DNA of 64,000 bases from Oceanispirochaeta sp. GTDB lineage: Bacteria; Spirochaetota; Spirochaetia; DSM-2461. The stretch spans positions 1,184,001 to 1,248,000 of the forward strand of contig CAXXXD010000002.1 of NCBI GenBank assembly GCA_963663385.2. The letters are read 5' to 3'. The position numbers were made by a program, and so were the translations under genes. Within the stretch, counting starts at the first letter, position 1. Each line of letters begins with the position of its first letter. Below the pieces are notes generated by a model, which saw only the letters and a list, made by a program, of their open reading frames with translations, was not told where the DNA came from and did not search any database. Positions 18,691 through 21,823 of this stretch are shown one piece after another.

Positions 18691-19819
18691 AAATCTCTTT
18701 AATTGTATCTCCTTCAACCAGACTTGCTGAAAGAACAATTCGTTCAATTTCCTGATCACCCTCTATAACACGATTGAGTTTTTCCATGGCCAGAATGCCC
18801 ATTTCGAATTCATTCTGTTTCAGATGAGTGTAGGCGGATTCCCCTATATACTCCCAGGGCGCATCAAAGCACAACAGGGAAACATCCCCGGGAATCTGAA
18901 GCCCGATTTCCTTTAATACATGGGACGCCAATATTGCCAGGTGATATTCGCAGGCAAAAATCGCTGTTATTCCTCTTTCTGCTGTTAGGTGATCAAGGAG
19001 AAGATTTTTATCTGTTTCAATATTTCCCGGTGTATTTCTTCCCGGCATTGTACTGACAAAATCCAGCAGGAACAGGGAGTCGTCAATTGGCAGATTGTAA
19101 TCCAGAATTGCCGCCTTGACTCCATCAAGCCGATCCTCCAATGCCGAAGTGTTTCGAACCGGAGGAGATAAGTAGAGAATCCGACGGTGTCCTTTATCAA
19201 GGAGATAAGAAGCTCCTTTATATGAGGCTTCCTTATGGTCTGTACCGATAAAGGAAGATTTCAATCCCCTCAGTTCCAAGTCGACAAGAACAAAGGGGAA
19301 GCCCTTCATGGATAATTCCATTATGGCAGGGTTAAAGAACTCATCGTGTTGAGGCTGTATAATAAGGCCCGAAGCCCCAAGGCTGATCAGGTCCCTGATA
19401 GCCTTTTCTTCAAGATCCTGTTTTCCTTTGGTCAGCTTCATGACCAGATAGTAGCCCAGTTTTTCGGCTTCCTTTTCAATGCCTTCCATAATTTTAATCC
19501 CGAAACTGGAGGATATATCGGGCAGTATAAAACCGATAAATTTCTGTTTCTGCCTGAATCTTCTACTGGTGCTCTGAAGGGGGAGGGGATGGCTGCCGGA
19601 AGATCCGGAATAGGAAACAATAGTCCCTTTCCCTCTTATCCGGGTTAAATACCCCTCTTCCACCAGCAGTTCCATAGCTTTACGAACAGTTACTCTGCTC
19701 ACTTCGAACTGCTGGGTAAGCTCCATTTCGGTTTCCACAGTAGATCCATACGTCAGTTCACCGCTTTGTATTCTACTTAAGAGATGATTATAAAGTTTCA
19801 AGTATTTCGGCTCTTCCAT
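18689..19819 (-). CDS. GntR-HTH / LacI-type sensor transcriptional regulator (AraR-like)
   Basis: TEMEL...VSRVTVRKA...RGKGT GntR HTH, then a periplasmic-binding-protein-like domain (IPGDVSLLCFD). Confidence 0.9.
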   Translation of the reverse strand: MEEPKYLKLYNHLLSRIQSGELTYGSTVETEMELTQQFEVSRVTVRKAMELLVEEGYLTRIRGKGTIVSYSGSSGSHPLPLQSTSRRFRQKQKFIGFILPDISSSFGIKIMEGIEKEAEKLGYYLVMKLTKGKQDLEEKAIRDLISLGASGLIIQPQHDEFFNPAIMELSMKGFPFVLVDLELRGLKSSFIGTDHKEASYKGASYLLDKGHRRILYLSPPVRNTSALEDRLDGVKAAILDYNLPIDDSLFLLDFVSTMPGRNTPGNIETDKNLLLDHLTAERGITAIFACEYHLAILASHVLKEIGLQIPGDVSLLCFDAPWEYIGESAYTHLKQNEFEMGILAMEKLNRVIEGDQEIERIVLSASLVEGDTIKEI

Positions 19820-19834
19820 AAGACATTTCCTTAT

Positions 19835-19850
19835 AATGTATCTTACAATT
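19835..19850. promoter_or_regulatory. Putative autoregulatory operator of the AraR-like regulator
   Basis: AATGTATCTTACAATT just upstream of the regulator start. Confidence 0.6.
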
Positions 19851-20015
19851 TATATTAAATGTATCATCCGCTGTATTAGTTTTCAAGCAGTATACGGATT
19901 TTCCATATTTACCAAATCTGAATATAAGTTTTAAATACCTGTAAGAATCCACCTGAATATAAATAACGATATAAAAAGCAGCTCCGGAAGGCAGGAGGAA
20001 TGATAAAAAGTCTTC

Positions 20016-20190
20016 ATAGGCTTGTGGATTGATACAATGTTCTAAACATCGTTTAGAACAGCCAGGTTACTGTTCGCCATTTTTACTGGTCTCCGAGACC
20101 GTACAGGAGAATGAAGAGCCGTGACCGAAACATTCAATGGTCTTCGAGACCGGATAGGAGAATGGAATCAATTCACCGTACAGGCGCTGT
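20016..20190 (+). ncRNA. Predicted bridge/seek RNA of the IS110 element (ends approximate)
   Basis: 10-bp 5' hairpin at 20038-20060, then two similar loop modules around GGTCT-NCG-AGACC hairpins whose flanks match the target and the circle junction. Confidence 0.75.
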
Positions 20191-20212
20191 TTTAGGCAAT
20201 AGGAGCGAAGGT

Positions 20213-21325
20213 ATGAAGATGAGTATCGGAGTGGATCTGCACAAATCCCAGTTAACAGTCTGTTTCCTGAGTGATGATAGAAGCATTTGTGAATCAGGAA
20301 TGTATCCGACCTCTGAGGACGGTTACAGAGCATTTCTTGAGAAAGCAGTGTCCTATACAGAAGAGGGCCTTGATGTTAGGGCTGCAGTGGAATCAACAGG
20401 AAATGCCCGGTTCTTCCGTAACAAGCTATTGCTAGCAGGGATTGAGGTGGTGGTTGTGAATACACTGAAATTCAAAGTTGTAAATGAATCAGTGAAAAAG
20501 ACGGATAAGCATGATGCCAGAACTCTAGCAGAGTTCTTGGAAAAAGATATGCTTCCCGAATCACAGCTTTGTTCTCAGGAGAGTGAGGATATCCGTAGAG
20601 TTCTTAAATCCAGAACTATCCTTGTTAAATCAGTCGTATCTTTGAAGAATCAGGTTCACGGACTGCTTCTAGGGTATGGAATTGAAACAAAAAGAGCTGC
20701 GCTGCAGAGTAAAAAAGAAAGGCAGCGCATCCTCATCGGTCTCGTGGACCATAGGAGTTTCGGAAGCGCTGCCAAAGCGATAGAACCGCTGCTTTCTACG
20801 ATAGATCAGGTTTCGAACCAGGTCAAGCAGTTAGAGAAAGTCCTGCTGGAACTTGTAAAGGAAGATGAGGATGTACAGTTATTGCAGACGATCCCGGGAG
20901 TCGGATTGATAACGGCATCGACTATTAGGGCCTATACGGATGATATCAAGCGGTACGCCAGTGCCAAGAAGTATTCGGCTTATGCCGGTCTTGTACCATG
21001 GGTGCAGAACTCCAATGAGACGATTCATCATGGGCATATAACAAAGAGAGGGGCTGTAGAACTGAGAACGGCATTTGTTCAGTGTGTTATGGGAATGGTT
21101 AGAACTCGGAAAACGACTGGCAATTACCGTATCATGACGAAGTACAGAGCGATGAAGAAGAACAAGGGCAGCGGCACGAGTATTATCGCCTCTGCAAGAA
21201 AGATGAGTACGGTAGTGTACTCCATATTGAAAACCCGTGAACCCTTTGATCCGTTGAAGATGGTTCCGGATGATAAGTACTTGAAGATGCAGGCGGCTGC
21301 ATTCAATGCCGTAAAAACTGGGTAA
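20213..21325 (+). CDS. IS110-family transposase/recombinase
   Basis: RuvC-like DEDD residues GVDLH, VEST, KTDKHDA; IPGVG; GLVPWVQNS serine motif; GHITKRG; RBS AGGAG before ATG 20213. Confidence 0.95.
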   Translation: MKMSIGVDLHKSQLTVCFLSDDRSICESGMYPTSEDGYRAFLEKAVSYTEEGLDVRAAVESTGNARFFRNKLLLAGIEVVVVNTLKFKVVNESVKKTDKHDARTLAEFLEKDMLPESQLCSQESEDIRRVLKSRTILVKSVVSLKNQVHGLLLGYGIETKRAALQSKKERQRILIGLVDHRSFGSAAKAIEPLLSTIDQVSNQVKQLEKVLLELVKEDEDVQLLQTIPGVGLITASTIRAYTDDIKRYASAKKYSAYAGLVPWVQNSNETIHHGHITKRGAVELRTAFVQCVMGMVRTRKTTGNYRIMTKYRAMKKNKGSGTSIIASARKMSTVVYSILKTREPFDPLKMVPDDKYLKMQAAAFNAVKTG

Positions 21326-21385
21326 TCCGGTTCAATTGTAAGCTTGTTAATAGGCTTATGATTGACTTTTTATAGGAGATAAAAA

Positions 21386-21823
21386 ATGGTTTTAAAATGG
21401 TCATACGATCTGAATCAGATAGACTGGAACGAACTGAAGGAACTCTACCGAGTCGCCCCCCTCAGTACAAAAACTGAGGAAAAACTTAAAATCACTTTCA
21501 AAAACAGCATGTTTAAATGCTTTGCCTACGATGGGGACAAACTGATTGCTGCGGGAAGAGCCCTGGCTGACGGGGCATACTGTTCCTATATTTGCGATAT
21601 AGGAGTACATCCCGATTATCAGGGACGGGGCATCGGCAGAAAAACAGTACAGAATCTGATGGATCAGTCCAGAGGGCATAAAAAGATTCTCCTCTATGCC
21701 AATCCGGGAAAAGAGGGGTTCTATGCAAAGCTCGGATTTAAAAAAATGAATACCGCAATGGCTCTTTTTGAAAACCAGGAGGAGATGATTGTTAAAGGAA
21801 TCCTGTCGGGAGAACAGGAATAG
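21386..21823 (+). CDS. GNAT family N-acetyltransferase
   Basis: VHPDYQGRGIG acetyl-CoA motif; FYAKLGF. Confidence 0.9.
   Translation: MVLKWSYDLNQIDWNELKELYRVAPLSTKTEEKLKITFKNSMFKCFAYDGDKLIAAGRALADGAYCSYICDIGVHPDYQGRGIGRKTVQNLMDQSRGHKKILLYANPGKEGFYAKLGFKKMNTAMALFENQEEMIVKGILSGEQE

Follow-up and report, generated by a model that had tools for sequence, protein, structure and literature searches.

Closest described systems and the locus under study

To our knowledge, bridge RNAs, also called seekRNAs, are the only known guides that specify both recombination partners, and they are under development as genome-writing tools. In the IS110-type element IS621, the bridge RNA carries a 2-nucleotide (nt) handshake guide and the core is CT (Durrant 2024, PMC11208160; Hiraizumi 2024, PMC11208158). 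According to Siddiquee 2024 (PMC11187229), IS1111-type elements have subterminal inverted repeats and a seekRNA that follows the transposase gene, one of the exceptions being ISMtsp17 with its upstream non-coding region; in ISEc11, ISPa11, and ISKpn4 the top-strand complement comes first, which is the reverse of the order in the IS110-type element ISEc21. Durrant 2024 (PMC11208160) predicted a bridge RNA for 85.7% of the IS110 elements and for 93.0% of those of the IS1111 type, and a later preprint (bioRxiv 10.64898/2026.10.21.760802) gives 86 covariance models, 32,190 loci, and 12 to 40 programmable nt, with many models deviating from the IS621 structure. Here we analyze an IS110-family element in a 64,000-nt stretch of DNA from Oceanispirochaeta sp. 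(assembly GCA_963663385.2, contig CAXXXD010000002.1, positions 1,184,001 to 1,248,000 of the forward strand), referred to as the window. All coordinates are window positions, and all features lie on its plus strand.

Positions 20024-20195 probably encode the bridge (seek) RNA of this 1381-bp element, a reading to which we assign a probability of roughly 0.88. A preliminary description, made from the letters of the window alone, had proposed an IS110 bridge RNA with one target loop and one donor loop in the left end, and this core claim is supported by covariation in about 100 elements and by 10 insertion sites. As in IS621, the RNA lies in a long left end, upstream of a recombinase with DEDD and Tnp domains; there are two pseudo-symmetric internal loops, for target and donor, each of which would read both DNA strands; the guides end at a common core dinucleotide; and a promoter is rebuilt across the circle junction, here at the level of sequence. 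The locus is a known system in a cleanly readable new variant and introduces no new principle.

Extent, copies, and empty site of the element

The element occupies 19998..21378, with a left end that extends 215 nt ahead of the recombinase ATG and a right end that extends 53 nt past the stop codon. The same genome harbors 10 copies at 100% identity (rounded), spanning approximately 19992 to 21378-21388. Nine of these were located by exact anchors, all nine being 1381 bp with the same termini, and the tenth (L010) has the same ends as the other nine. The possibility, raised in the preliminary description, that other copies have different ends was checked, and the nine located copies share theirs. 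In the window copy, the left junction is GCAGGAG/GAATG (19991-19997/19998-20002) and the right junction is ATAGGAG/ATAAA (21372-21378/21379). The left target half is GCAGGAG (19991..19997), of which the last 2 nt, AG, are the putative core, and the right target half (21379..21388) consists of ATAAAAA and the ATG (21386) of the downstream GNAT acetyltransferase gene.

An empty site was found on one 13,946-nt Logan contig from another sample (public run X6), in which 19992 is joined to 21374. As this contig omits exactly 1381 bp, the reconstructed empty site, ...GGCAGGAG/ATAAAAAATGG, exists as such; five letters (AGGAG) are assignable to either side, and the element boundary slides within this shared AGGAG. 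The reconstructed ends of the preliminary description were confirmed by the 10 genomic copies and the X6 contig, and the strings that it quoted (hairpin, modules, and junctions) were all found where it had placed them. In run X2 the element contig had a depth of 411, compared with 42.8 for the flanks, a ratio that fits approximately 10 copies. When the right flank was used to seek the empty site in the genomes of 20 relatives, no usable match was obtained, the sole match being 51 nt long (E = 7.6e-4).

Two modules of one design, kept by compensatory changes

For comparison across the family, 48 loci were taken from genomes, mostly Spirochaetia metagenome-assembled genomes (MAGs) together with Marispirochaeta, Treponema, and Rectinema, and 80 of 268 metagenome loci were taken. 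Structure was assessed with RNAalifold and explicit pair counts in 75 left ends (at most 93% alike, 195 to 245 nt), 8 loci with large indels or N being excluded. The structured region spans approximately 170 nt (20024-20195) and contains two modules of one design, in which arms of 10 nt on the 5' and the 3' side separate the closing helix from a 5-bp hairpin that has U.G as its closing pair. Across 45 pairs, 90.0% of cells were paired, compared with 80.3% after shuffling (0/500 shuffles reached the observed value) and 31-47% when the strands were slid. Both module hairpins were 100% paired with many double-sided changes, including GC:42/AU:33 and UA:41/CG:29 at two pairs of the module-2 hairpin, and the closing helix of module 1 was 98.3% paired. 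The check across homologous elements that the preliminary description had suggested was thereby carried out, and the structure is kept by compensatory changes in the 75 homologs.

Module 1, the target-binding loop (TBL; 20065..20126), has basal stems at 20065-72/20117-26 (two registers) and 20073-76/20112-15, a 5' arm at 20077-86, a hairpin at 20087-20101, and a 3' arm at 20102-11 (U-ACAGGAG-AA); positions 20080-20113 read TTTTT-ACT-GGTCTCCGAGACC-GT-ACAGGAG-AATG. Both registers of its outer stem covary, and this stem stays ambiguous. Module 2, the donor-binding loop (DBL; 20125..20165), has its closing helix at 20125-27/20163-65, a 5' arm at 20128-37 (AAA-CAUUC-AA), a hairpin at 20138-52, and a 3' arm at 20153-62 (G-AUAGGAG-AA); positions 20131-20164 read CATTC-AAT-GGTCTTCGAGACC-GG-ATAGGAG-AATG. 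The modules are identical at 30/41 positions in register in the window copy, with a mean of 64% in 65/75 homologs. The likeness of the two loops, from which the preliminary description had deduced the duplication of one unit, stands, and it is a general property of bridge RNAs according to Hiraizumi 2024 (PMC11208158). The epithet "compact" does not, as neither the recombinase (370 amino acids [aa] against 328 aa for chain 8wt6_A) nor the structured region of about 170 nt makes the system more compact than IS621.

Outside the modules, a 5' hairpin (20038..20060) has a 10-bp stem, formed by TGTTCTAAAC (20038-20047) and GTTTAGAACA (20051-20060), and a 3-nt loop. Its 3' half alternatively pairs with 20186..20195, which is the 3' strand of a long-range helix whose 5' strand is 20053-20062. 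This helix covaries (86.9% paired, double changes at 9/10 pairs) and competes with the hairpin. Duplex energies of -8 kcal/mol or lower were found for the 5' hairpin in 68/75 homologs and for the long-range helix in 73/75, compared with 20/75 in the shuffle. The 3' boundary of the RNA domain may lie at positions 20186-20195. The first hairpin's 3' half accordingly has two conserved, mutually exclusive partners, and this region could act as a switch or supply the helix that closes the mature RNA. A second long-range helix in the minimum free energy fold joins the 5' strand GTGGATTGA (20024..20032) to 20168-20176 and encloses hairpin 1, the TBL, and the DBL; it was 68% paired with double changes at 8/9 pairs, in a region where the alignment is poor.

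A number of elements depart from this design. In L047 (Rectinema subterraneum) there is a single module, with the module-1 5' arm fused to the module-2 hairpin and 3' arm, which looks like a deletion between two near-identical modules; a larger deletion is present in L052. A 21-nt hairpin-like insert splits the DBL 3' arm in L094, L095, and L097 (GAATAGGA-TTCTCAGCGAAGCTTCGAGAG-GAATG), and an 18-nt insert lies within the TBL hairpin of L069. The elements with inserts otherwise look intact.

Donor guides match the ends of the element

The DBL 5' arm guide, CAUUC (20131..20135), is the reverse complement of positions 1-5 of the left end, GAATG (19998..20002), which form the right-donor segment. 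In the 75 left ends, 98.9% of cells between left-end positions 1-5 and 20135-20131 were paired, with compensatory states at three of the five positions (AU64/UA5/CG3; AU68/GU5/GC1; UA64/CG9). The states observed for left end and arm were GAATG/CATTC, GTATG/CATAC, GAACG/CGTTC, GCACG/CGTGC, GCATG/CATGC, GTACG/CGTAC, and GAGTG/CACTC. Left end and DBL 5' arm agreed by Watson-Crick pairing in 58/70 cases, compared with 46.6 after shuffling (1/10000). The DBL 3' arm guide, AUAGGAG (20154..20160), agrees letter for letter with the final 7 nt of the right end in 97/99 elements, the right ends having been placed by a conserved motif and not by the guide, and three elements have ATAGAAG in both places. 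The exact match of module 2 to the circle junction that had been read from the window copy is supported on both sides, by covariation with the left end and by identity with the right end.

The dinucleotide AG terminates every left flank and every right end, and AG is all that flank (CACGGAG) and right end (ATAGAAG) share in L128. Both 3' arms end in AG, and the 5' arms cover the core only in some members (with CU in the window copy).

The target-binding loop tracks the left flank

Of 113 elements, 101 had 13 nt of arm together with a minimum of 8 nt of flank. They gave 69 different arm/flank pairs, with 29 arms among them. Kinship among elements is ignored by the shuffle controls; the flanks, which are host DNA, had been dereplicated. 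The TBL 3' arm guide, ACAGGAG (20103..20109), has the same sense as the left flank plus core and would pair with the bottom strand. Its identity to the element's own left flank was 84, 91, 96, 96, 99, 100, and 100% at -7 to -1, and 19% at -8. At -8..-4 it matched at 266/345 positions, compared with 190.8 +/- 6.2 when flanks were shuffled (0/10000), and the top three mutual information (MI) couplings between RNA column and target position were 20103/-7, 20104/-6, and 20105/-5. In both loops, guide matches first noticed in a single copy exceed chance across the family, namely those to the left flank (0/10000) and to the left end of the element (1/10000). A subgroup whose targets lack AGGAG follows the same rule, as the flanks CACGGAG, CACAAAG, AGGGGAG, and TAGGGAG carry exactly matching arms. 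In the Oceanispirochaeta genome the left flank is ACAGGAG in 8/10 copies, GCAGGAG in the window copy, and AAAGGAG in L002. The 10/12 match of module 1 to the window's empty site had been counted correctly, and its left half fits the other copies better (8/10 exactly ACAGGAG).

The preliminary description had also predicted the right half of the target, with TTTTT reading AAAAA. This part fared less well than the left half (0/10000 shuffles): it showed no family-wide covariation peak and only a preference for A-rich sequence in this genome. The U-rich part of the TBL 5' arm, UUUUUACU (20080..20087), is a candidate guide for the top strand of the core and right flank. ACAGGAG occurs 1462 times in this genome (597 expected from composition), 8 of these sites being occupied, 173 free, and 1281 other, where the free sites are those with a crude ribosome-site context. 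Right-flank positions 1 to 6 (RF1-6) contained 65% A at 9 occupied sites, compared with 34% at the 173 free sites resembling Shine-Dalgarno sequences. Complementarity to UUUUUACU was likewise higher at occupied than at free sites, at 5.78 versus 3.92 of 8 in register -2 (Mann-Whitney U test, P = 3e-4) and with P = 1e-5 in register -1, and, with U.G counted as a pair, the arm is complementary over its full match to 4/10 right flanks (TAAAAA twice, TGAAAA, and TAGAGA). In the register analogous to that of the donor loop (offset -3), the TBL 5' arm gave no signal (z = 0.9). Taken on sequence grounds, it is about an even chance that this arm serves as a low-information guide for an A-rich spacer.

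No covariation of a handshake guide was discerned by eye, as the variable base after the 3'-arm guides (GAG-A-x-UG) tracks neither the second base of the left end nor the second base of the right flank, and this base is absent among the right-flank MI pairs. The earlier proposal that the system should be reprogrammable appears plausible because 29 distinct module-1 3' arms occur, each paired with its own flank.

The subgroup with CACGGAG, CACAAAG, or TAGGGAG targets comprises metagenome loci (L107, L111-L113, L115-L117, L121, L127, L128, L131, and L133). In this subgroup the TBL 5' arm is complementary to the TBL 3' arm of the same element, and the left-flank motif recurs in tandem, imperfectly, in the right flanks, as in CACACGGAG/ACACGGAGGAGG. 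These repeated targets are 7 to 9 nt long. Two tandem copies of the element, with GCACAGAG between them, are present at L107.

Insertion at ribosome-binding sites

A start codon that opens an open reading frame (ORF) was found 3 to 12 nt past the element at 66/86 distinct sites, with a mode of 6 nt, and the non-AGGAG subgroup accounts for 9 of the 20 exceptions. Given this spacing, the element lies ahead of the start codon and behind the Shine-Dalgarno sequence, and it points in the direction of the gene. Prior to insertion, the downstream gene in the window, that of the GNAT acetyltransferase (21386-21823), had GCAGGAG (19991-19997) as its Shine-Dalgarno sequence. The ATAGGAG of the right end would replace this original ribosome site as the new Shine-Dalgarno sequence.

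IS900, an IS110-family element of Mycobacterium avium subsp. paratuberculosis, and its relatives are likewise reported to insert in the interval from ribosome-binding site to start codon. In IS900 the transposase is antisense to the target gene, and the 'hed' ORF on the complementary strand lacks a ribosome-binding site and start codon of its own. The spirochaete element resembles IS900 in inserting site-specifically and in one orientation between ribosome site and start codon; it differs in that its transposase is co-directional with the gene and the element brings a replacement ribosome site. Literature searches for a bridge RNA that targets ribosome sites showed nothing relevant among the entries listed. 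Homing to ribosome-binding sites and restoring them may explain how 10 copies came to lie before start codons without destruction of the sites.

Element ends and a proposed cycle

The left end begins GAATGATAAAAAG, and a left-end motif G...(G/A)ATAAAA (TGATAAAA type) was present at 113/132 loci. The right terminus, TTGACTTTTTATAGGAG (21362..21378), combines a -35 box, TTGACT (21362-67), the right subterminal repeat (21364-73), and the left-donor segment plus core, ATAGGAG (21372-78); the corresponding right-end motif, TTGACTTTTTATAGGAG with TTGAC, was found at 102/113 loci. The left subterminal inverted repeat, ATAAAAAGTC (20003-20012), is 10 nt long and 100% complementary to 21364-21373. It overlaps a candidate extended -10 element (20001..20012) made up of TG (20001-02) and TAAAAA (20004-09). 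When the two ends are joined, they form TTGACT, 17 nt, and TG-n-TAAAAA, a promoter at the level of sequence. Its predicted transcription start, near 20016, comes after the left-end bases read by module 2. In the integrated copy, a pattern scan found no plus-strand promoter-like site ahead of the RNA.

The ends, the copies, the empty site, and the covariation of the structure and of the guides with flanks and ends are observed, and transcription, the RNA ends, protein binding, and the strand-exchange chemistry belong to a cycle that we infer. In this cycle the element would excise as a circle, and the joining of right and left ends would build the promoter for the RNA and then the recombinase gene. 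The RNA would fold into two equal modules, each with a 10x10-nt internal loop between its closing helix and its 5-bp hairpin, and the U-rich 5' arm of the TBL would pair loosely with the A-rich top strand at the right. The DEDD/Ser recombinase would then exchange strands at the common dinucleotide, AG on the top and CT on the bottom strand. The preferred target would be a Shine-Dalgarno sequence with an A-rich spacer, so that the element would land ahead of a start codon and in the direction of the gene, and its end, ATAGGAG, would supply a new Shine-Dalgarno sequence at the same spacing.

After the recombinase gene, a pattern match points to a terminator-like hairpin followed by a T-run (21332..21365). 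The hairpin (21332-21365) is followed by CTTTTTAT and overlaps the -35 box, and by eye its sequence varies among homologs with the pairing kept. An active terminator here would isolate the downstream gene from transcription that begins upstream. At L030, the right end is followed by a partial second right-end copy (TTGAGCTCACGGTTGACTTTTTAT...).

Alternative explanations

As an alternative to a bispecific bridge RNA, the RNA might pick only the target, as proposed for IS1111-type elements, with the protein reading the ends through the 10-bp subterminal repeats; module 2 would then be a structural duplicate whose end matches are by-products of conserved termini. The perfect 10-bp inverted repeat, which is set 5 nt in from either end and is almost unchanged across the family, fits this model, as does the IS1111-like order of the arms. 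The right end and DBL 3' arm, moreover, hardly vary (ATAGGAG in 94/99 elements), which leaves little power for covariation on that side. The left end speaks differently, since changes at left-end positions 1-5 are accompanied by changes in the DBL 5' arm, fully Watson-Crick partners being present for GTATG, GAACG, GCACG, GCATG, GTACG, and GAGTG besides the standard GAATG, and the inverted repeat does not reach these covarying termini. ATAGAAG likewise recurs in the arm of the three elements that end in ATAGAAG, and we regard guidance to the target only as improbable. Less probable still is a structured 5' leader that controls translation or transcription of the recombinase, in which AGGAG-A-AUG would provide decoy ribosome sites or an attenuator and no DNA would be guided. 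Both 3' arms do read AGGAGAAUG, resembling a ribosome site plus AUG, the two exclusive pairings of 20051-62 are conserved and would suit a switch, and there are terminator-like patterns within the region. Such a leader would have no reason to copy the host flank at -7..-5 or the element's own first 5 nt, which lie upstream of the putative start site, and the AUGs of the two arms are in the recombinase frame in 25/75 and 23/75 homologs, as expected at random. That the region instead encodes an N-terminal extension of the recombinase is barely credible. The longest ORF is 404 aa from 20111, and a database protein (P0001; 387 aa, 100% identical) has its called start inside the DBL, at the AUG of the 3' arm in module 2. 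Nevertheless, the phases of the module-2 AUG relative to the recombinase AUG are 25/23/27, the frame is open in only 18/75 homologs, most homologs are 370 aa, and what is conserved is base-pair compensation, not codons.

Several observations weigh against the bridge RNA reading and are considered together here. In three types of DBL 5' arm/left end combination the two do not match (CGAAC/GTCTG, CATCC/GTATG, and CATTC/GTATG), and the DBL 3' arm is unlike the right end in 2/99 elements. A search of Rfam with 19800-21500 at E <= 10 returned four sub-threshold chance matches and no bridge RNA family, which means only that Rfam contains no fitting model. The public sequencing runs listed for this DNA include no RNA run. 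On the target side, no RNA column couples strongly to right-flank positions (no MI peak, family-wide), register scans of the TBL 5' arm gave z values of 3.6 to 5.3 across three registers, and in multi-copy relatives sharing one arm the predicted T at RF1 was found at 2/12 sites. In one Spirochaetia MAG with 12 copies (L011-L022), 8/12 left flanks are (T)ATAGGAG and fit the DBL arm better than the TBL arm UUAGGAG at -7. Finally, CAUUC and GAAUG can pair with each other in the window copy. A plain RNA stem between these two was considered and rejected, as the 3' partner (GAAUG, GAUUG, GAGUG, or GACUG) varies independently of the 5' arm and it is the left end that tracks the arm.

The flanks in L011-L022 are up to 12 nt identical to the element's own right terminus TTTTTATAGGAG, and the TBL arm of these copies is UUUAGGAG. 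The upstream DNA is not a right-end remnant, which suggests targets that mimic the left half of the donor.

Relation to IS110- and IS1111-type elements

The structured RNA domain, at about 170 nt, is similar in size to that of IS621, in which DBL numbering runs to nt 177. Two unpaired nt follow the 3'-arm guide at the place that the handshake guide occupies in IS621. The order of the arms is the reverse of that in IS621, a point missed in the preliminary description: in both loops the top-strand complement is 5' and the bottom-strand match 3'. Only on the strand opposite to the recombinase does the geometry become IS621-like, the 5' arm then having a CT core beside the hairpin and the 3'-arm guide being followed by two spare bases. 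Here it is the 3' arm that carries the long, informative guide (7 nt), and its partner arm is either 5 nt (donor) or low in information (target). The subterminal inverted repeat is 10 bp, compared with 2 to 3 bp in IS110-type elements.

In the order of the arms and in having terminal extensions beyond the repeat, the element resembles IS1111-type elements, and its 10-bp repeat falls within the 7- to 17-bp range reported for these (Durrant 2024, PMC11208160). It differs from them in that the non-coding RNA region lies upstream and not downstream of the recombinase gene, in the length of the recombinase (370 aa compared with 330 to 350 aa), and in the Ser motif, which is GLVPWVQNSN here and GL-P----S(t)G in the IS1111 type. 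As an indirect clue on relatedness to IS1111, the ten leading genera of plasmid matches (E <= 1e-5) include no Escherichia, Klebsiella, or Salmonella. Judged from these sequence features, the family appears to combine an IS110 layout with the arm order and repeats of the IS1111 type. Such mixed traits bear on the kinship of the two groups and on the link between arm order and the position of the RNA gene.

Like the bridge RNAs surveyed in the 2026 preprint, this one is a two-loop RNA beside an IS110-type recombinase that covaries with target and donor, and its guides (target 7 plus approximately 5 to 8 nt, donor 7 plus 5 nt) would fall in the lower part of the reported range. No ISfinder-style names of spirochaete elements appear in the readable supplements of Durrant 2024 (PMC11208160); large surveys may already include the spirochaete family. 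The architecture is legible from sequence, with two equal 10x10-nt loops and 7- and 5-nt guides, and about 29 natural retargetings of one arm are on view. As a tool the system is poor at present because its guides are short and of low complexity.

Tentatively, and at slightly less than even odds, the spirochaete family may represent a third layout of RNA-guided IS110 elements, marked by an upstream RNA, IS1111-type arm polarity, a 10-bp repeat, a CT core on the opposite strand, 5+2-nt guides homing to Shine-Dalgarno/A-rich spacers, replacement of the ribosome site, and possibly interchangeable loops. The cargo may then in effect be inverted relative to the recombination frame. If this holds, insertion need not abolish downstream translation, as the ribosome site would be replaced by the element end, and because the left halves of donor and target are one base apart, the loops could substitute for one another.

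Recombinase gene and its homologs

The recombinase gene (20213..21325) encodes 370 aa with a DEDD RuvC-like domain and a Tnp domain (PF01548 DEDD_Tnp_IS110, 8.7e-21; PF02371 Transposase_20, 4.6e-19), and the protein passed the NCBIfam model NF033542, "IS110 family RNA-guided transposase," with 228 bits (cutoff, 140). Residues D8, E60, D98, D101, and S267 were invariant in 30 homologs. Similarity to the solved recombinases of IS621 (E = 9e-16) and ISCro4 (E = 1e-15) is distant and mostly confined to residues 202-349, with the catalytic Ser aligning with ES(G) of IS621. At least 3236 homologous proteins were found at E <= 1e-20 among 8000 candidates scored. Among the plasmid matches listed, only a Thiospirochaeta perfilievii plasmid carries a close relative (75%), the rest being below 33%. 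A length of 370 aa throughout the family and the random frame of the arm AUGs indicate 20213, and not 20111 or 20162, as the probable start of the recombinase.

Within this gene, positions 20730-20752 (TCCTCATCGGTCTCGTGGACCAT), which code for the conserved ILIGLVDH, are 77 to 78% complementary over 22 to 23 nt to 20087-20108 and 20137-20159. This complementarity to the hairpin and 3' arm of both modules may be due to chance, arising from the palindromic hairpin, or may reflect pairing between the RNA and the mRNA.

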